DNA of 64,000 nucleotides from an uncultured Bacillota bacterium (GTDB lineage Bacteria; Bacillota_I; Bacilli_A; RF39; UBA660), in NCBI GenBank assembly GCA_948466255.1, contig CAOJZV010000006.1, forward strand, positions 2,521-66,520. Reading direction: 5' to 3'. Below the pieces are notes generated by a model. That model made no database searches and was not told where the DNA came from. It saw only the letters and a program-made list of their open reading frames with translations. The position numbers and the translations under genes are program-made. Of this stretch, positions 20,661 through 53,805 are shown in pieces. The number at the start of each line of letters is the position of its first letter. Position 1 is the first letter of the stretch.

Positions 20661-21986
20661 ATGAAAAGAGCTAGTTATGTTGATAAGTCTGGTAATACTA
20701 TTGATCATACTTTTGAAAGTAAAAAAACCTTTTTAAATATCTTTTTTGTCATTGGTACTATTGTTCCTTTGATACTTATTGGGTTAATTATTTATACAAT
20801 GGTTGATAATAGTAAATGTGATAAAATTTATAATAGTATTAAAACAGCTACATTAGAATATATGAAGGATAATGATAAAATGCCAGAATATGAGGGTGAT
20901 AGTGCAAGTATTAATATAGATAAACTATATTCAGGTAAATATTTAAGCAGTCTGAATACGGATAATTTAGTGTGCTCTGGAAAAGTGAAAGCTACTAAAT
21001 ATAAAAATGAAATTATTTATACTTTAGATGTTAACAATTGTAATACTTGTTCAACTAATAAAAGATATGGTTCTTGGAGTGAAGAACTTAGTTATTATCC
21101 TGCAGGTAAAAGTATAGTTGATGTTATTCCATATTATAATTTCTATGAAAGAGAAGTTTTAACTACTGATTGGTCTAAAAATTATGAGGCTGATGAAATA
21201 AGTGAAAAAGAATCTAAATATGGAGTTAAAATGCCTAAAGATACTGAAGATAATGGTATGCCTAAAGTACCTACAGAAGGTGAAATTGTTGAGGTGCAAA
21301 CGTTAGAGACACCAATGTATCGTTATAAAGATAAACAATGGCTTTGGTATGATCAACCCTTAAATTATTCAGATTTTTCTTCTGAACAGCCTAGTGGTTT
21401 TTCTACTAAAGACGAAAATACTAGAATTTATACCGAATGGTCTGAATATTCATTAAATTATCCAGGAGAAAAAACTTATCGTGAAATAAAGCAAACAACA
21501 GGATATAAATTTTATTATGAAAAAGATGGTAAAAAAATATATGCTAATAATGGTAAATATACGGCACCTGAAGATGTAGATGAATCTAAATATGATCAGC
21601 GTGATAGTGATACTAGTACTTTATACCAATATCGAGATTCTAAGTGGCGTTGGTATAATGGTCAAAAAAGAAGATATTCTTCTTATCGTTCAGTTCAACC
21701 TGAAAGTTATCCTTACCGTGATGATGCAACTATGCAAGAAACCCCTTATAGTGGTTGGGAAGAAAATTCTTCAATTAATTCGAGTAATGCCGGATATAGA
21801 ACTGAAGAAACTAAAATCCTAACTAAATTTCGTTATGTTTATGAAATTTTATCTTTGCCGGTTTTAAAAAAGCCAGTAACTTTAGATAAATTTGAAAAAG
21901 AAGTAGCTATGACACCTAGTGATTTTGCTAGTTTAGAAGAATACAAATTAGAAGTGACTTATAAATTTAAATATAGAAAAAGATGA
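20661..21986 (+). CDS. Hypothetical membrane-anchored/secreted protein with W-x-W-Y repeats
   Basis: ATG 20661 follows a GGAGGAG SD. It has one TM helix (FFVIGTIVPLILIGLIIYTMV). Motifs YRYKDKQWLWYD and YQYRDSKWRWYNG recur. No family was recognised. Confidence 0.55.
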   Translation: MKRASYVDKSGNTIDHTFESKKTFLNIFFVIGTIVPLILIGLIIYTMVDNSKCDKIYNSIKTATLEYMKDNDKMPEYEGDSASINIDKLYSGKYLSSLNTDNLVCSGKVKATKYKNEIIYTLDVNNCNTCSTNKRYGSWSEELSYYPAGKSIVDVIPYYNFYEREVLTTDWSKNYEADEISEKESKYGVKMPKDTEDNGMPKVPTEGEIVEVQTLETPMYRYKDKQWLWYDQPLNYSDFSSEQPSGFSTKDENTRIYTEWSEYSLNYPGEKTYREIKQTTGYKFYYEKDGKKIYANNGKYTAPEDVDESKYDQRDSDTSTLYQYRDSKWRWYNGQKRRYSSYRSVQPESYPYRDDATMQETPYSGWEENSSINSSNAGYRTEETKILTKFRYVYEILSLPVLKKPVTLDKFEKEVAMTPSDFASLEEYKLEVTYKFKYRKR

Positions 21987-22002
21987 TTTTAAAATCATCT
22001 TT
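21978..22002. repeat. Left copy of the 25-bp direct repeat (terminator palindrome) flanking the IS
   Basis: AAAAGATGATTTTAAAATCATCTTT is identical to 23028-23052. It contains the perfect palindrome AAAGATGATTTT/AAAATCATCTTT. Confidence 0.9.
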
Positions 22003-23027
22003 CCTAAATTGAAATTTCAACCGCACCAGTAAGGTGTGGTTTTTGATATAATAAAAGAGCCCCACCCGGCAAGGAGGACTCATATATGTATTATACACAA
22101 TTAACAGAAAAAAAGAAAGTAGAAATTGATATATTATTAAAACAAGGATTATCAATGAGAAAAGTAGCTTCGATACTTGGAATAAGCCATTCAACTATAT
22201 CTAGATACAAAGCAGGAGTATATAAAAAGAGAACAATAAATATAAAGGAAAAATATAAAATATTTATAGATTATTTGTATACTCATTATGATAGAAAAAC
22301 ATCATCTATAGAGGTATGTATATTTATGTTTAAAAAAAGATATCGTGGCGTGAAATGTCCATCAGTTAAACAAGTATACAATTGGATAAATGAAGGAAAA
22401 ATAAATATTGATAAAAATTATATGTGTTATAAAAGACGTAAAAATAAAATAAGAAACGGAATGATGTCACACACAAAATGGAATCTTGATAACAAAACAG
22501 TTTTACCAATAAGTTTAAGACCAAAATATATTAATAAGAGGGATGAACCAGGACATTTAGAAATAGATTCGATTTTAGGTAAAAAGAATGAACAGGCATC
22601 AATAATATCTATTGTAGATAGATGTACAAGAAGATTATGGCTTATAAAAGCAGAATACAAAAATGAATATTATATAAACAAATTAATATATGAATACATA
22701 ATAAAAAACGAAATAGAAACAAAATCAATAACGGTAGATAATGGATTAGAATTTCAAGCATTGGGAATAGCGGCAAAAAAATTGGGAGTAAAGTTATATA
22801 AGTGTGATCCATATTGTTCATTTCAAAGAGGAACAAATGAAAGAACCAATGCGTTGGTAAGAAGATTTATACCAAAAGGAGATACTATGAAAACAAAATC
22901 ACAGATATATTTAGATGATATTTGTTTTAATATAAATAGTATGCCTAGAAAAATATTTGACTTTAAATCATCTTTTGAGGTAGAATTAAATTATATTTAA
23001 AGTGGTGCGGTTGAAATTACAAAAAAG
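22003..23027 (+). mobile_element. IS30-family insertion sequence
   Basis: Single DDE transposase ORF. The 22-bp terminal inverted repeats are TTGAAATTTCAACCGCACCAGT (22009-22030) and the reverse complement of 23001-23022, with 2 mismatches. The element is flanked directly by 25-bp direct repeats. Confidence 0.85.
22086..23000 (+). CDS. IS30 family transposase
   Basis: N-terminal HTH (LKQGLSMRKVASILGISHSTISR) and a DDE domain (GHLEIDSILGK..., ITVDNGLEF, FQRGTNERTNALVRRFIPKG). Confidence 0.9.
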   Translation: MYYTQLTEKKKVEIDILLKQGLSMRKVASILGISHSTISRYKAGVYKKRTINIKEKYKIFIDYLYTHYDRKTSSIEVCIFMFKKRYRGVKCPSVKQVYNWINEGKINIDKNYMCYKRRKNKIRNGMMSHTKWNLDNKTVLPISLRPKYINKRDEPGHLEIDSILGKKNEQASIISIVDRCTRRLWLIKAEYKNEYYINKLIYEYIIKNEIETKSITVDNGLEFQALGIAAKKLGVKLYKCDPYCSFQRGTNERTNALVRRFIPKGDTMKTKSQIYLDDICFNINSMPRKIFDFKSSFEVELNYI

Positions 23028-23052
23028 AAAAGATGATTTTAAAATCATCTTT
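23028..23052. repeat. Right copy of the 25-bp direct repeat flanking the IS
   Basis: Identical to 21978-22002. Confidence 0.9.
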
Positions 23053-23498
23053 TATAGTGGAAAATCATGAACATCTGCATTAAAATAATTATCATTACGA
23101 TTTATTTCATAAATTGTTTTAATAGTATCTAAAATATCTTTATCATATTCATTTGTGTTTAAAATATCTGATAAAGATAATACACCGATTATATCTTTGT
23201 TTTTAGTAACAACTAATCTTTTTATCTTGTGCTTTTTCATTAATTTTAAAGCATCTATTACATCTTTATCTTGGTCTATAGTTATAACTTTTTTAGAAGC
23301 ATAACTTTTTATTTGTGATAATTGATTAGCCATATCACAAACTAAATCACGGTCAGTTACAACTCCAAACAATTTATCTTTTTCCATAATTAAGATAAAG
23401 CCAACATCCCAAGCATTCATTAAATTTGATACAAACAAAATATTATCATCTGGATCACAAGTTATTAATTTTTTTGACATTATTTCTTTTATTTTCAT
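23052..23498 (-). CDS. CBS domain pair protein
   Basis: IKEIMSKKLITCDPDDNI and GVVTDRDLV repeats typical of tandem CBS domains. 148 aa. Confidence 0.75.
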   Translation of the reverse strand: MKIKEIMSKKLITCDPDDNILFVSNLMNAWDVGFILIMEKDKLFGVVTDRDLVCDMANQLSQIKSYASKKVITIDQDKDVIDALKLMKKHKIKRLVVTKNKDIIGVLSLSDILNTNEYDKDILDTIKTIYEINRNDNYFNADVHDFPL

Positions 23499-24366: not shown

Positions 24367-24648
24367 ATGAAAAAATATACTATAAACGAAAAAGAATATG
24401 AATTAATAAAAGATTATCGTGATGGTTTTGATTTATCTGAGGTTACTGATAAATTTACAGATTATTTTGATAATTATGATTATATATTAGGTGACTGGGC
24501 TTATGGAAAACTTAGATTAAAAGGTTTTTGTGATAAGGATAATAGTCTTTTTAAGGATATAAATGATTATTCAACTATTGAGAATTATATTAAGGATAAT
24601 TGTGCTTATAATTGTAAATATTTTATTTTAAAGAAACTTAGTAAATAA
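24367..24648 (+). CDS. yutD: YutD-like protein (DUF1027)
   Basis: YELIKDYRDGFD...DYILGDWAYGKLRLKGF matches the YutD family signature. ATG 24367 is preferred over the track start. Confidence 0.65.
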   Translation: MKKYTINEKEYELIKDYRDGFDLSEVTDKFTDYFDNYDYILGDWAYGKLRLKGFCDKDNSLFKDINDYSTIENYIKDNCAYNCKYFILKKLSK

Positions 24649-24690
24649 GATATTATTGTAATAATTTAATTAATGTGTTATATTATATTT

Positions 24691-24793
24691 AGTGAGGAAA
24701 TTCCTCATAAAAAAGGGAAACATTGTAACATATCAATGTCTGCCTAAATTGTTTTTAGTAAGACACTTTGCTTATGCAAGGTGTCATTTTTTT
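24691..24793 (+). ncRNA. Putative antisense (antitoxin) sRNA, copy 1
   Basis: Promoter TTGTAA (24656-24661), 17 nt, TATATT (24679-24684). Terminator hairpin GACACTTTGC-TTAT-GCAAGGTGTC (24762-24785) followed by ATTTTTTT. It is complementary to the 3' UTR of the minus-strand peptide mRNA. The ends are predicted only. Confidence 0.35.
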
Positions 24794-24794
24794 A

Positions 24795-24878
24795 TTAATT
24801 AAGGCACTTCCAAAGAAGGCCAATCAACAAAATGATAATTACAAGCAATACTAGGATTATAAAATCTTTTTTTGTCAT
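24795..24878 (-). CDS. 27-aa hydrophobic peptide (candidate type I toxin), copy 1
   Basis: Translation: MTKKDFIILVLLVIIILLIGLLWKCLN. An AAGGAGGG SD sits 8 nt upstream and is half-buried in a CCTTTCAG/CTGAAAGG hairpin. Promoter TTGACC-17-TATATT on the minus strand (complement of 24958-24986). Confidence 0.45.
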   Translation of the reverse strand: MTKKDFIILVLLVIIILLIGLLWKCLN

Positions 24879-25195
24879 AATATCAAGCCCTCCTTTCAGG
24901 AACCCCCTGAAACTGAAAGGCAGACACCGATAGCGGTTAAAATGTTTCCGAGTAATTAATATAAACTAGTTATAAACAAAGGTCAAACAACAATTTTGGC
25001 ATTTTTGAAGCATTTTTTCATACAAAAAAACCAAATCTGTTATAGACAAATTTGGCAAATTCATAAGGTTTATTTCTTCAAAAAAGGAAAGTTGGTAGTT
25101 TTATTTATATTATGGAAATTTTATGAAAAGGTGGTTAGGTGGTGGAAAAAAGATAGTAAAAATGTTATAATGGATAAAGATAGGAGGCCTTTAAA

Positions 25196-26285
25196 ATGGA
25201 ATTTAAAGAACTATTAGTAATTTATAGTGATTATAAAAATAGAATAAATGATTTATGGAGGTCTCTTTGACTCTAATTCTAAACAAAAAAGAATGGATGA
25301 ATTAGATAAAATAATGAAGGAAGATAACTTTTGGAATGATAAAAGAAAAAGCGAAACAGTTATTTCTGAATATAATTATTTAAAAAAATTATTAGAAGAA
25401 ACTAGTAATTTGAAAGAAGAAATTGAATTTCATAATGATTCTTTAGGAAATTCTGAGCTTGAAAGTGACGAATCAAATTGGGCTTTAGATGAATATAAAA
25501 ATTTAGGCCAAAGATTAGATGAACTCGAACTTCAAATTTTACTTAGTGGACAGTATGATAAAAATGATGCGGTATTAGAAATACATTCAGGAGCAGGTGG
25601 AACTGAAGCTTGTGACTGGGCAAATATGCTTTATCGTATGTATACAAGATGGTGTGAAAAGAAAGGTTATAAGATAGAAGTTATTGATGAACAGCCTGGA
25701 ACTGAAGTTGGAATTAAAAGTGTTTCTTTAATTGTTAAAGGTCTTAATGCTTTTGGTTATCTTCAAGGTGAAAAGGGAATTCATAGGCTTGTTAGAATTT
25801 CACCGTTTGACAGCAATTCAAGAAGACATACTTCTTTTGCAGCGGTTGAGGTAACACCAGTAATAGATGATGATGCTGATCTTGAAATTGATGAAAAAGA
25901 TATTAGAGTAGATGTTTATCGTAGTTCTGGCGCAGGTGGACAGGGCGTTAATACAACCGATAGTGCAGTTAGGATAACACATTTACCAACAAAAATAATT
26001 GTTACGTGTCAAAATGAACGTAGTCAAATTCAAAATAAAGAAAAGTGTATGCAAATACTTAAAAGTAAATTATTGAAAATAAAAGCAGAAGAAAAGGAAG
26101 CTGAAATGAAAGAATTAAAAGGTGAATTAAAAGAAATTAATTTTGGCTCACAAATTAGAAGTTATGTTATGTGTCCATATACTTTAGTTAAAGATCATCG
26201 AACTAACGCTGAAGATGTTAATGTATCTAAAGTATTGGATGGGGATATAGATTTATTTATAAAAGAATATTTAAAGGAGAAGTAG
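25196..26285 (+). CDS. prfB: Peptide chain release factor 2, requires a programmed +1 frameshift at 25265-25271
   Basis: ORF0 ([24 protein letters not shown]) ends at CTT TGA C (25265-25271), preceded by the SD-like GGAGG (25257-25261). The +1 frame continues [12 protein letters not shown] and carries the SPF and GGQ motifs ([16 protein letters not shown]). Confidence 0.95.
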
Positions 26286-32247: not shown

Positions 32248-32487
32248 TATAAAAAATTTATATATTTACCAACTTTCCCTTTTTGTAGGTTAAAGTTTTA
32301 CAAATTTACCAAATTTGTCTATAACAGATTTGGTTTTTTGGTATGAAAAAGTGTTTCAAAAATGCTAAATTTGTCATTTGACCTTTATTTATAACTAGTT
32401 TATATTATTTTCTCGGAAACATTTGTAACCGCTGTCGGTGTCTACCTTTCATTTTTTCAGGGGGTTTCCTGAAAGGAGGGGTTTGGT

Positions 32488-32571
32488 ATGCTTACAAAAA
32501 AAGATTTTATAATCCTAGTACTGTTAGTTATTATCATTTTACTGATTATCCTTCTTTTAAAGAATGGGTAG
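32488..32571 (+). CDS. 27-aa hydrophobic peptide (candidate type I toxin), copy 2
   Basis: Translation: MLTKKDFIILVLLVIIILLIILLLKNG. The SD AAGGAGG (32473-32479) is partly paired in a CCTTTCA/TGAAAGG hairpin (32445-32451 with 32470-32476). Promoter TTGACC (32378-32383), 17 nt, TATATT (32401-32406). Confidence 0.45.
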   Translation: MLTKKDFIILVLLVIIILLIILLLKNG

Positions 32572-32574
32572 TTA

Positions 32575-32679
32575 ATAAAGAAAGACACCCCGCTTTAAGC
32601 AGAGTGTCTTTCTGGTCAAAAAACTAGGTAGACATTGATATGTTACAATGTTTCCTTTTTTATGAGGAATTCCCCCATT
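32575..32679 (-). ncRNA. Putative antisense (antitoxin) sRNA, copy 2
   Basis: Minus-strand promoter TTGTAA (complement of 32709-32714), 17 nt, TATATT (complement of 32686-32691). The AAAGACAC...GTGTCTTT hairpin (32581-32611) acts as a bidirectional terminator. The ends are predicted only. Confidence 0.35.
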
Positions 32680-32718
32680 AATTAAAATATATCATATTTG
32701 TTAAAATATTACAACATT

Positions 32719-33297
32719 TTATAGTTTAAAATCTTTTGTGTCGTCATCACTCATATTTTTACCATCGAAATATAATTTTGGTTTAAATTTAAATATTAAC
32801 GCAATGATATTAGATGGAAATCTTTTAACTAACTTATTATAGTCAGTAATGATATCGTTATAATATTTTCTAAATGCAACTATTTCAGCTTCTGATTCAC
32901 TTAATGAAATATCGATTTTAGTAAACACTTCACTTTTTTTAAGTTCTGGATGTTCTTCTTTGTGTTTATTAAATTCTTTGATACCTTCATATAATCTTCT
33001 ATCTAAATCAAAATTTGATAACTTTCTAGATCTTAATTTAACAATAATTGTTAAAATATCGCCTTCAATTTTGGTATTAGCTTTAATGATATCGATTGAT
33101 TTATTAAGTAAATCAAATCTTGTTCTTAATGTTGAATCAATATTAGCTTCAGCTTCATTTATTCTAATAATATAGTTTTGAAAATTATTATATGTACCTG
33201 CAATTAATAATCCCAAAATAAAGATAATAAAAAAACTTGCTAATGTAATGATTAATGTTGTCATACTACCACCTAAAATCATTATAGCAAATTTCAT
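32719..33297 (-). CDS. lemA: LemA family protein
   Basis: N-terminal TM helix, then YNNFQNYIIRINEAEANIDSTLRTRFDLLNKSIDIIK, the LemA signature. Confidence 0.75.
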   Translation of the reverse strand: MKFAIMILGGSMTTLIITLASFFIIFILGLLIAGTYNNFQNYIIRINEAEANIDSTLRTRFDLLNKSIDIIKANTKIEGDILTIIVKLRSRKLSNFDLDRRLYEGIKEFNKHKEEHPELKKSEVFTKIDISLSESEAEIVAFRKYYNDIITDYNKLVKRFPSNIIALIFKFKPKLYFDGKNMSDDDTKDFKL

Positions 33298-53589: not shown

Positions 53590-53805
53590 TTTTATAAATC
53601 AATGAGGAAGAATAGTAGTATAAATTAATATTAATAGAGAGTTAGTGTTTGGTGGAAACTAACAATATTGTTTATATGAATCTACTTCTGAGTGGAAATT
53701 AATCATTTCCCGGTCTTGGCCGTTATCTTTAATTAAGACTATGAATTAGGATGGTACCGTGATAATTCACTCCTAAAATACATGGTCTTTTTGTTTTATT
53801 TTTGG
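53590..53805 (+). promoter_or_regulatory. T-box riboswitch leader, probable Ser (UCU) specifier
   Basis: Stem I elements are present: AGTAGTA at ~53614, AGAGA at 53636-53640, and a GGTGGAAAC distal loop at 53651. The candidate specifier is GAA-TCT-A at 53678-53684. The T-box sequence AATTAGGATGGTACCGTG spans 53744-53761. A T-rich tract sits at 53788-53803. Confidence 0.75.

Follow-up and report, generated by a model that had tools for sequence, protein, structure and literature searches.

Two copies of a short element in the window, the 64,000-nt stretch of DNA from an uncultured Bacillota bacterium that was analysed here, raise the question of what is encoded between a pair of convergent promoters set around a 27-codon reading frame, and of what the complementarity between the two ends of the predicted mRNA is for.

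Features of the two window copies

A promoter scan found the promoters that an earlier note on this DNA had claimed, TTGACC-17-TATATT for the peptide mRNA (24986-24958 on the minus strand in copy 1, 32378-32406 on the plus strand in copy 2) and, facing it on the opposite strand, a TG-extended TTGTAA-17-TATATT (24656-24684 on the plus strand in copy 1, 32714-32686 on the minus strand in copy 2). The ends given below for both RNAs are predicted from consensus signals only.

Copy 1
25023..25056 (-), upstream hairpin and T-run, a putative insulating terminator (terminator scan)
24958..24986 (-), promoter TTGACC-17-TATATT of the putative toxin mRNA; predicted start about 24951-24950
24920..24949 (-), 5' arm of the closing helix, mRNA nt 2-31 (RNAfold MFE, pair probabilities, covariation)
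24915..24920 (-), local anti-SD CCUUUC, directly after the 5' arm (MFE folds with and without a 3'-UTR block)
24889..24893 (-), Shine-Dalgarno (SD) sequence GGAGG; part of a hairpin that stacks on the closing helix
24795..24878 (-), ORF of 27 codons, MTKKDFIILVLLVIIILLIGLLWKCLN, plus stop (read from the sequence)
24762..24785 (-), 3'-UTR hairpin; its plus-strand complement, followed by T7 (24787-24793), is the predicted antisense RNA terminator
24745..24761 (-), A/U-rich linker, immediately 5' of the 3' arm (unpaired probabilities)
24716..24743 (-), 3' arm of the closing helix, mRNA nt 208-235; can form a local self-hairpin instead
24709..24714 (-), U-run, immediately 3' of the 3' arm; probable 3' end of the putative toxin mRNA
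24656..24684 (+), predicted antisense promoter TTGTAA-17-TG-TATATT
24691..24793 (+), predicted antisense (antitoxin) RNA, about 103 nt

Copy 2
32308..32340 (+), upstream hairpin and T-run (scan)
32378..32406 (+), promoter TTGACC-17-TATATT of the putative toxin mRNA (scan)
32415..32447 (+), 5' arm of the closing helix (fold)
32488..32571 (+), ORF of 27 codons, MLTKKDFIILVLLVIIILLIILLLKNG, plus stop; SD GGAGG at 32475-32479
32626..32655 (+), 3' arm of the closing helix; the U-run comes next (32656-32661)
32575..32714 (-), antisense promoter (32714-32686) and predicted antisense RNA of about 105 nt (about 32679-32575)

In copy 1, the first C of the anti-SD (24920) is the same base as the last pair of the 5' arm, and the predicted antisense RNA has a hairpin in its 5' part (24694-24706), which an A-run separates from the complement of the 3' arm; the linker and the terminator follow. 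The upstream hairpin and T-run lie within the duplicated module and are kept in copy 2. Many homologues have similar hairpins upstream.

A helix between the two ends of the predicted mRNA

We checked by hand the pairings between the mRNA ends that the earlier note had listed. In copy 1, GGAAACATT (24949-24941) pairs with AATGTTTCC (24724-24716) and GTCTGCC (24925-24919) pairs with GGCAGAC (24744-24738); in copy 2, 32415-32423 pairs with 32647-32655 and GTCTACC pairs with GGTAGAC. The compensated double change in the 7-bp arm, from G:C in copy 1 to A:T in copy 2, is real. Thus, the proposed 5'/3' pairing stands, but its extent of 9 + 7 bp was too short, as the helix comprises about 26-29 bp (9 + 4/5 + 13, including G-U pairs). 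Indeed, folding of both mRNAs with RNAfold, which the note had suggested, recovers the closing helix in each copy: nt 2-31 pair with nt 208-235 in copy 1 (26 bp, mean pair probability 0.97), and nt 2-34 pair with nt 213-242 in copy 2 (29 bp, mean pair probability 0.95).

As had been proposed, this fold-back encloses the entire RNA of about 240 nt, with an MFE z-score of -7.6 for copy 1 and -7.0 for copy 2, and none of 200 shuffles folds as stably as the whole RNA. The duplex of the two arms has an energy of -37 kcal/mol, whereas some 1500 38-nt windows drawn at random from the same sequence give -8 to -10 +/- 3-4 kcal/mol, and the closing helix is worth 28 kcal/mol of the fold energy. The competing local terminator hairpin is also present, since the 3' arm folds on itself at -10 kcal/mol directly before the U-run; in the closed form, the 3' arm of the window copies has an unpaired probability of 0.04-0.09.

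Conservation of the helix in homologous elements

We searched for homologues with a pattern of the peptide only, which is blind to RNA structure and demanded no SD, start or stop codon. This search yielded 25 further distinct full-length elements in gut MAGs, for a total of 27 with the window copies, which form seven sequence groups (A-G) whose arms cannot be aligned between some groups. The same-species contigs L001-L006 are 100% identical to the window and hence uninformative for covariation. The element is multicopy, with at least six copies in MAG CANRSQ01, four in CASPVX01 and two in the window, and decayed or truncated copies (L009/L013 and L035) are found as well.

When each sequence was folded alone, all 27 elements formed an end-to-end helix of 17-35 bp, which in every case joins nt 2-5 to some of the last few bases, no further than 3 nt from where the delimited element ends. 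The arms stay paired in the larger collection of homologues that the note had called for (94-98% of cells in two independent alignable sets). Across groups A-C, 97.9% of cells are paired, and sliding the partners lowers this to 31-50%; three pairs (10 cells) have changed on both sides. Across groups E-F, 93.6% are paired, falling to 36-49% on sliding, and five pairs (9 cells) have changed on both sides. The covariation among homologues is thus far stronger than the single compensated pair known before. That pair is G-U in seven homologues, G-C in three, A-U in two and another combination in one, and the presence of G-U implies that the change passes through a wobble intermediate.

A single global MAFFT alignment of all 27 elements analysed with RNAalifold did not recover the helix, because the arms are non-homologous in sequence between groups and hence were misaligned; therefore, we analysed the two alignable sets apart and each sequence singly. 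Groups D-G match the profile of groups A-C only over the SD and ORF, yet they have complementary arms of their own. The arm pairs include 77 G-U pairs but only 4 C-A mismatches on the sense strand, the sense-strand duplex of the arms is the more stable one in 27 of 27 elements, and in each locus the best partner of the 5' arm is the real 3' arm. In the sequences of all seven groups, the 5' arm begins about 7 nt past the -10 box, and all seven have the sense promoter and the small hydrophobic ORF. A U-run follows right after the 3' arm in most copies of group A and in groups C, D, E and F. It is missing in L017, L021 and groups B and G, where the primary transcript would extend beyond the helix.

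A 12-codon ORF over the -35 box of the peptide promoter seemed constrained between the two window copies, but homologues lack it and we attribute it to chance.

A predicted antisense RNA complementary to the 3' UTR

An equivalent of the opposite-strand promoter named in the note recurs across all seven groups, and in nearly every element the distance between its end and the arm is either 7-10 nt or 29-36 nt. On the antisense strand, most groups have a terminator hairpin and U-run on the 3' side of the stop codon. The terminator lies right next to the codon in groups A, B, C, E (with a weak U-run) and G, and some 35 nt further on in group D; group F yielded no clear terminator. Together, the promoter and terminator are predicted to delimit an antisense RNA of about 80-105 nt, whose complementarity to the 3' UTR takes in the 3' arm. 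Its continuous complementarity to the mRNA is 78 nt in copy 1 and 78-81 nt over the copies.

In most elements, the most accessible 10 nt of the 3' UTR directly adjoin the 3' arm; in copy 1, they lie within the linker. Because the antisense terminator hairpin has short loops of 3-5 nt, both in the window copies and in the majority of homologues from groups A and B, the site of first contact is uncertain. An Fst-like mode, with the antisense RNA bound to the initiation region, was considered and rejected, as 155 of 300 and 57 of 300 shuffles paired equally well.

Predicted masking of the Shine-Dalgarno sequence

The SD is predicted to be held in a local stem with the anti-SD, with an unpaired probability of 0.19-0.21 in the window copies; this probability is ≤0.3 in most groups, with group B as the exception (0.4-0.8). 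We calculated the thermodynamic effect of blocking the 3' UTR. The unpaired probability of the SD fell from 0.21 to 0.017 in copy 1, where the SD stem extends into the GC of the 5' arm (24921-24920), and from 0.19 to 0.04 in copy 2, while the accessibility of the 5' end rose from 0.13 to 0.7-0.9. This tightening of the SD is a thermodynamic prediction with modest effect sizes, and groups A, B, E and F all show it. Groups C and G do not, and in group D, whose SD region pairs with an anti-SD located in the 3' UTR, the block instead raises SD accessibility (0.02 to 0.3).

The peptide

The encoded peptides have a KKD head, an unbroken hydrophobic helix and a short polar tail, and comprise 27 aa in both copies. 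As the note had observed, MTKKDFIILVLLVIIILLIGLLWKCLN of copy 1 and MLTKKDFIILVLLVIIILLIILLLKNG of copy 2 differ in the C-terminal third, save for an extra Leu2 in copy 2. All seven groups have ORFs of 21-27 aa with an SD and an ATG or GTG start, and the peptide is conserved between groups whose UTRs cannot be aligned.

No family in Pfam or NCBIfam, the Fst family included, matched the peptide above background, and no Pfam family, HOK_GEF included, matched it at E ≤10. The RNAs had no Rfam match at gathering score, and at a permissive threshold the best E-value was 0.66, with nothing credible. These searches of Pfam, NCBIfam and Rfam also gave no homology to BsrG or SR4, for which the libraries may hold no model. 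The peptide is probably unrelated in sequence to BsrG, and it presumably lacks the Fst-type proline motif. None of the four N-terminal strings of 8-9 residues of the peptide was found in any paper in open-access full text. A blastn search of plasmids and phages with the 431-nt element and pattern scans of viral contigs for the element gave no match.

Similarity to bsrG/SR4

We consider it likely, with a probability of about 0.72, that each copy is a type I toxin-antitoxin-like module with an RNA architecture of the bsrG/SR4 type. The sequence signals include the hallmarks of type I systems: a short hydrophobic ORF, a predicted sequestered SD and a predicted antisense gene with its own promoter and terminator. 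Among known architectures, that of B. subtilis bsrG/SR4 with its helix P1, and not that of hok, is the nearest. In bsrG mRNA, nt 1-35 pair with nt 232-262 to form P1, and binding of SR4 to the 3' half of P1 leaves nt 1-33 single-stranded and extends the 4-bp SD stem to 8 bp (PMC3834814). Like bsrG, the elements studied here have a long interrupted helix that joins the first ~35 nt to a 3' segment and closes the toxin mRNA, an SD in a short stem above the closing helix, and a predicted convergent antisense RNA complementary to the 3' strand of the helix. Freeing of the 5' strand and lengthening of the SD stem on antisense binding may also apply here, as thermodynamic predictions, with the tighter SD in groups A, B, E and F only.

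There are differences as well. The peptide has 27 aa, compared to 38 aa for BsrG, and the antisense RNA is about 100 nt, compared to 183 nt for SR4. BsrG-type antisense RNAs overlap the toxin ORF according to the T1TAdb paper (PMC8594479), whereas the antisense RNA here is predicted to end on the 3' side of the stop codon, outside the ORF. Unlike bsrG, the window copies have no separate terminator stem-loop after the helix; instead, the 3' arm is itself the terminator hairpin, with the U-run immediately after it. The hosts also differ, as the elements are from MAGs of uncultured gut Bacilli/'Tenericutes' rather than from B. subtilis.

The par system (Fst/RNA II) of the Enterococcus faecalis plasmid pAD1 is similar in that a neighbouring 5' stem-loop masks the SD and the two RNAs are convergent (PMC7472228). 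However, direct repeats mediate the pairing of Fst RNA II with the initiation region, and RNA I and RNA II have one bidirectional terminator in common, while the antisense terminator here is separate and inside the 3' UTR of the putative toxin mRNA.

Proposed mechanism

On the bsrG/SR4-type reading, a sigma-A-type promoter would direct synthesis of an mRNA of about 235-242 nt encoding the 27-aa peptide, and the interrupted end-to-end helix of 26-29 bp would make this mRNA a closed multibranch structure, in which the SD would be masked by the local anti-SD in a hairpin atop the closing helix. The convergent promoter just past the 3' end of the mRNA would give an antisense RNA of about 100 nt, a perfect complement of the 3' UTR, that ends at its own terminator just 3' of the toxin stop codon. 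We suggest that the 3' arm would first fold on itself as the terminator hairpin before the U-run, and that the free 5' arm would next capture it with a gain of about 28 kcal/mol. With both ends hidden from exonucleases, the closed mRNA may be long-lived and poorly translated. The antisense RNA might then nucleate on the single-stranded A/U-rich linker and evict the 5' arm by a toehold-type strand displacement, in which perfect Watson-Crick pairing would outcompete a helix with G-U pairs, a mismatch and bulges. The resulting duplex of about 80 bp would be a substrate for RNase III, and the freed 5' end would be open to 5'-dependent RNases; the junction nucleotides GCC, once released, could lengthen the stem between the anti-SD and SD and shut translation tighter.

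A more elaborate version, which we think unlikely, is that the closing helix is a programmed two-state device and more than a stabiliser, such that the 3' segment serves successively as terminator hairpin, as partner of the 5' end and as antisense target. In copies with the U-run, termination and 3'-end formation might then need the 5' arm, as a long-range 'panhandle' terminator that would make 3'-end formation depend on a free 5' end, and the antisense RNA would mimic the mRNA's own 5' end and displace that end by a toehold. If this were true, the seven natural variants would make the architecture testable and portable as an RNA device.

Alternative explanations

The earlier note had likened the fold-back to the locking of hok and aapA, and that likeness holds in part. 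As in hok/Sok and aapA/IsoA, a 5'/3' interaction closes the full-length mRNA and local metastable or terminator hairpins compete with it (PMC6733600). A lock of this kind, which we regard as unlikely here, would use the helix to keep the full-length mRNA inert both for translation and for antisense binding, until slow 3' trimming refolded it to a translatable form that the antisense RNA then neutralises. Such 5'/3' long-distance interactions are established in hok and aapA (PMC6733600); closing of the mRNA indeed buries part of the antisense target, namely the 3' arm (unpaired probability 0.04-0.09 in the window copies), and the helix consumes a local hairpin loop able to kiss the antisense hairpin loop. 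Group D alone resembles the aapA/IsoA arrangement, in that its anti-SD is in the 3' UTR and helix opening raises SD accessibility (0.02 to 0.3). However, SD sequestration in hok and aapA is a direct effect of the long-distance interaction, their antisense RNAs work on the 5' side, and their mRNAs become active through 3' trimming (PMC6733600). In contrast, the window copies and six of the seven groups have a local anti-SD, and opening of the helix is predicted never to free the SD there, and to hide it more in the window copies. Moreover, the antisense promoter is at the 3' end, while hok has a mok leader ORF and Sok is directed at the 5' initiation region, to which antisense complementarity here is no better than chance. 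Since the antisense RNA covers the 3' arm, 3' trimming would cut away part of the antitoxin target rather than create it.

Alternatively, the locus might produce a structured mRNA and a cis-antisense RNA that are not a toxin-antitoxin pair; the peptide would then be a small, harmless membrane protein, and the antisense RNA would adjust its level. Consistent with this, the peptide matches no toxin family and both window copies sit amid housekeeping genes and not on an obvious mobile element. We consider it quite improbable, given that an element which is multicopy and has decayed or truncated copies combines all the hallmarks of type I modules: the peptide of 21-27 aa is a pure hydrophobic helix behind a charged head, the SD is masked, the mRNA is closed and very stable, and the antisense RNA that converges on it has a separate terminator.

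Finally, an inverted repeat at the DNA level (MITE-like terminal repeats or a protein-binding palindrome, with the RNA helix as a by-product), which a short AT-rich multicopy element with ~30-bp inverted repeats at its bounds superficially resembles and which an IS30-like transposase 1.7 kb off might favour, was rejected as very improbable on boundaries, strand asymmetry and covariation: homology between the copies extends ~130 nt upstream of the 5' arm and ~60 nt past the 3' arm, so the arms are not element boundaries, arm changes are compensatory and keep the sense-strand RNA pairs (77 G-U versus 4 C-A; sense more stable in 27/27), the 5' arm begins at the predicted transcription start in every group, and plasmid, phage and viral collections had no match.

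Implications for the family and its hosts

The repeats look like an undescribed family of small-toxin/antisense-RNA (type I TA-like) modules in uncultured gut bacteria, judging from their sequences. The family comes from MAGs of uncultured gut Bacilli/'Tenericutes', hosts for which almost nothing is known of such modules, and its loci, which escape gene callers, should not be taken for empty intergenic DNA. The bsrG/SR4 pair has reportedly been characterised in a single species by structure probing; the seven diverged versions of one RNA architecture provide covariation evidence that bsrG/SR4 is not known to have. The bsrG-type design, in which the 3' strand of the closing helix is the antitoxin target, appears to be recurrent in Firmicutes and may extend beyond one prophage gene. 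The bsrG paper left unexplained how the double-stranded region melts when SR4 binds (PMC3834814), and the single-stranded toehold beside the helix suggests a testable melting mechanism for binding of the bsrG type.

The putative toxin mRNAs are predicted to be closed by a long 5′/3′ helix

Two type I toxin-antitoxin-like modules, each with a predicted peptide mRNA and an antisense RNA, lie in the window, and a search for a third copy within the window found none:

about 24690-24990, minus strand: copy 1
about 32378-32715, plus strand: copy 2

The two copies are 86% identical across ∼430 nt. An earlier note had proposed that the 5′ end of each mRNA pairs with its 3′ end, and its coordinates and sequences for both copies were all correct on checking; both promoters that it claimed were recovered by a consensus scan. 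We find that the helix exists in RNAfold predictions, but is much longer than reported. In copy 1, nt 2-31 of the mRNA pair with nt 208-235 (26 bp), and in copy 2, nt 2-34 pair with nt 213-242 (29 bp), in each case through three segments, of 9 bp (terminal), 4-5 bp and 13 bp (inner), the last of which holds 2 or 3 G-U pairs. The whole-RNA z-scores are −7.6 (copy 1) and −7.0 (copy 2), the mean pair probability within the helix is 0.97 and 0.95, respectively, and the fold loses 28 kcal/mol when the 5′ arm is kept unpaired. Similarly, the arm duplex has a predicted energy of −37 kcal/mol, compared to −8 to −10 ± 3-4 kcal/mol for ∼1500 random windows of the same DNA. Together these calculations show that the predicted closing helix is not due to chance. 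The local terminator hairpin that had been suggested to compete with this helix also exists, since the 3′ arm alone can self-fold (−10 kcal/mol) and is followed directly by a U-run.

The closing helix is conserved among homologues

Homologues were collected by scanning genome and metagenome collections with a degenerate pattern that is blind to RNA structure (T-K-K-D-F, then 8-10 codons with T at the second position); the genome pattern demanded no Shine-Dalgarno (SD) sequence, start or stop codon, while the metagenome pattern included RTG. About two thirds of the matches are short ORFs of 21-27 aa, each with an SD and a start codon. These ORFs lie in MAGs of gut and rumen origin that bear the label uncultured Bacilli or Tenericutes, and many of the genomes have several copies; no match to the element was found in plasmids, phages or viral contigs, and contigs identical to the window were found in ENA/Logan metagenome assemblies only. 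Deduplication left 27 full-length elements, which sort by sequence into seven groups (A to G). Three decayed copies were also observed: one (L035:6481-6665) is truncated right after the initial bases of the 3′-UTR hairpin, and two (L009:2340-2523 and L013:6068-6251) keep the promoter, 5′ arm, ORF and 3′-UTR hairpin but have lost the 3′ arm.

When folded singly, all 27 elements pair nt 2-5 with the last few nucleotides in a closure of 17-35 bp, the 3′ side of which stops ≤3 nt short of the delimited 3′ end. Thirteen sequences from groups A-C were aligned with MAFFT, blind to structure; 97.9% of cells are paired, compared to 31-50% when the partners are slid, and both sides have changed in 3 pairs (10 cells). 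Likewise, for the nine sequences of groups E-F, 93.6% of cells are paired versus 36-49% when slid, with both sides changed in 5 pairs (9 cells). In group A the terminal segment is GGAAAC/GUUUCC and the second segment GUAAC/GUUAC; their counterparts in group B are GGAGAU/AUCUCC and GAAAC/GUUUC. The arms of group D (GAACCUUUAGUU/AACUAGAGGUUC) and of group G (GGAGAG/CUCUCC plus AGUGCUACC/GGUAGCACU) are unrelated in sequence, with the design unchanged. The single pair earlier described as compensated between the window copies is G-U (7), G-C (3), A-U (2) or another combination (1) among homologues; the change thus goes by way of a wobble state.

Outside the SD and ORF, a profile of groups A-C finds no match in groups D-G; divergence of the UTRs, including the arms, is thus beyond recognition. 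In a single global alignment of all 27 elements the helix does not emerge, owing to misalignment of arms that are not homologous.

A palindrome in the DNA and a structure of the antisense strand are both excluded by strand specificity: there are 77 G-U pairs versus 4 C-A mismatches, and in 27 of 27 elements the sense strand forms a more stable arm duplex than the reverse complement does.

Other parts of the module

In every group the 5′ arm begins ∼7 nt past the −10 box, at the predicted transcription start. Directly 3′ of this arm, and overlapping its final nucleotides, is a local anti-SD that pairs with the SD. Its sequence is CCUUUC in both window copies, and groups E, F and G have CCUCC or CCUCG.

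Nearly all elements, with each of the seven groups represented, have a good, often TG-extended promoter on the opposite strand. The distance between the end of its −10 box and the end of the 3′ arm is either 7-10 nt or 29-36 nt, and both spacings occur even inside group A; in the longer form, the extra 22-25 nt make up a 5′ hairpin of the predicted antisense RNA and, on the sense strand, the U-run after the 3′ arm. In most groups the antisense RNA ends in a hairpin and U-run terminator. Groups A, B, C, E and G have it directly past the stop codon of the toxin ORF, and group D ∼35 nt downstream; group E has a weak U-run, and group F yielded no clear antisense terminator. The predicted antisense RNAs of the window are:

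24691-24793, plus strand: antisense RNA of copy 1
about 32679-32575, minus strand: antisense RNA of copy 2

Each has 78-81 nt of complementarity to its own mRNA and a perfect 26-nt match to the 3′ arm of the other copy; complementarity to the translation initiation region does not exceed that expected by chance. The 3′ arms (24716-24741 and 32630-32655) are an identical 26 nt in both copies, and each antisense RNA could therefore pair with the mRNA of the other copy. Specificity may be set by the linker adjoining the arm, which differs between copies.

Two further features lie within the duplicated unit or over the toxin −35 box:

25023-25056, minus strand: upstream hairpin and T-run, copy 1
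32308-32340, plus strand: upstream hairpin and T-run, copy 2
24980-25018, minus strand: 12-codon ORF over the toxin −35 box, MKKCFKNAKIVV
32346-32384, plus strand: 12-codon ORF over the toxin −35 box, MKKCFKNAKFVI

The upstream hairpin lies ∼45 nt 5′ of the −35 box, and many homologues in groups A, C, D, F and G have comparable hairpins. In copy 1 there is no upstream gene on that strand to terminate; the hairpin may shield the toxin promoter from read-through. In the 12-codon ORF, the copies differ at six sites, four of them synonymous, but this ORF is probably due to chance, since it has no SD and is missing from homologues.

Genomic setting

The modules (24640-25111 and 32253-32730) form inverted repeats around 7.1 kb of housekeeping genes (prfB, yitT, ftsE, ftsX, yabG, veg, spoVG, yabP, yabQ and divIC), a block with essential roles in cell division, translation and sporulation. 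Given the identity and inverted orientation of the copies, an inversion of this block by recombination between them is possible in principle; on the copy 1 side, a contig of the same species, L001, is arranged like the window. Neighbouring features are:

2362-2706: class B RNase P RNA
22086-23000: IS30-like transposase ORF (HTH_38 plus rve domains)
25197-26285, plus strand: prfB (release factor 2)
53593-53777: T-box leader

The transposase ORF is bounded by 51-nt inverted repeats (21978-22028 and 23003-23053; 90% complementary), and this element (21978-23053) lies 1.7 kb from copy 1. prfB has a classic programmed +1 frameshift site, with a short first frame from the ATG at 25197 to ...GGAGGTCTCTTTGAC (about 25256-25270) and a main frame on to 26285. 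The genome has a G+C content of 28% and carries sporulation genes; the RNase P RNA and T-box leader, ordinary features, place the organism among Firmicutes or relatives.

A bsrG-type mechanism is favoured

The closing helix had been likened to hok- and aapA-type locking. In hok and aapA, the long-distance interaction itself sequesters the SD, the antisense RNA works at the 5′ side, and the mRNA is activated by 3′ trimming (PMC6733600). The window copies share the 5′/3′ interaction and nothing further: all three other features are absent, and 3′ trimming would remove the antisense target. The structural claim stands; the mechanistic analogy is better drawn with bsrG/SR4. In bsrG mRNA, structure probing places helix P1 between nt 1-35 and nt 232-262. 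The 3′ half of P1 is the part bound by SR4, and in the complex nt 1-33 are left single-stranded and the SD stem, 4 bp long before, reaches 8 bp, such that SR4 lowers translation on top of RNase III-dependent decay (PMC3834814). The ‘upstream helix’ of par RNA I is a precedent for stabilisation of a toxin RNA by sequestration of its 5′ end (PMC7472228).

We mimicked bound antisense RNA by blocking the 3′ UTR in folding. As in bsrG/SR4, the window mRNAs are predicted to free the 5′ arm and to tighten the SD: for the first 8 nt, the probability of being unpaired goes up from 0.13 to 0.93 (copy 1) or 0.73 (copy 2), while for the SD it drops from 0.21 to 0.017 in copy 1 and, in copy 2, from 0.19 to 0.04, because junction nucleotides quit the helix and lengthen the anti-SD stem. 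The SD also tightens in groups A, B, E and F, is unchanged in C and G, and shows the reverse in D. Group D (L008, L016 and L026) has an extra anti-SD, UUCCUCC, just past the stop codon in the 3′ UTR that pairs with the SD region in the closed form only, and the folding suggests that this group may be closer to hok/aapA in mechanism than the window copies are. For most elements, the 10-nt stretch of highest accessibility in the 3′ UTR adjoins the 3′ arm on its 5′ side, and could thus serve as a natural toehold from which the perfectly complementary antisense RNA displaces the imperfect 5′ arm.

Since the predicted switch agrees with the bsrG/SR4 probing, we favour a bsrG-type model for the window modules, by analogy and from folding. 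The closed mRNA would be stable and poorly translated; antisense invasion would expose the 5′ end, form a long duplex and tighten the SD stem. This account of the whole module is drawn from sequence and thermodynamic prediction, which show that its predicted parts exist and are conserved; we infer the folding order, the participating RNases, the toehold and the peptide's toxicity.

The peptide matched no family in Pfam or NCBIfam, and the RNAs none in Rfam; four N-terminal 8-9-residue peptide strings found no paper in open-access full text, and nothing resembling the module is mentioned in the T1TAdb paper, where 24 families are counted and the main ones named (PMC8594479). Judged by these searches, the family appears to be undescribed; its architecture is one already known.
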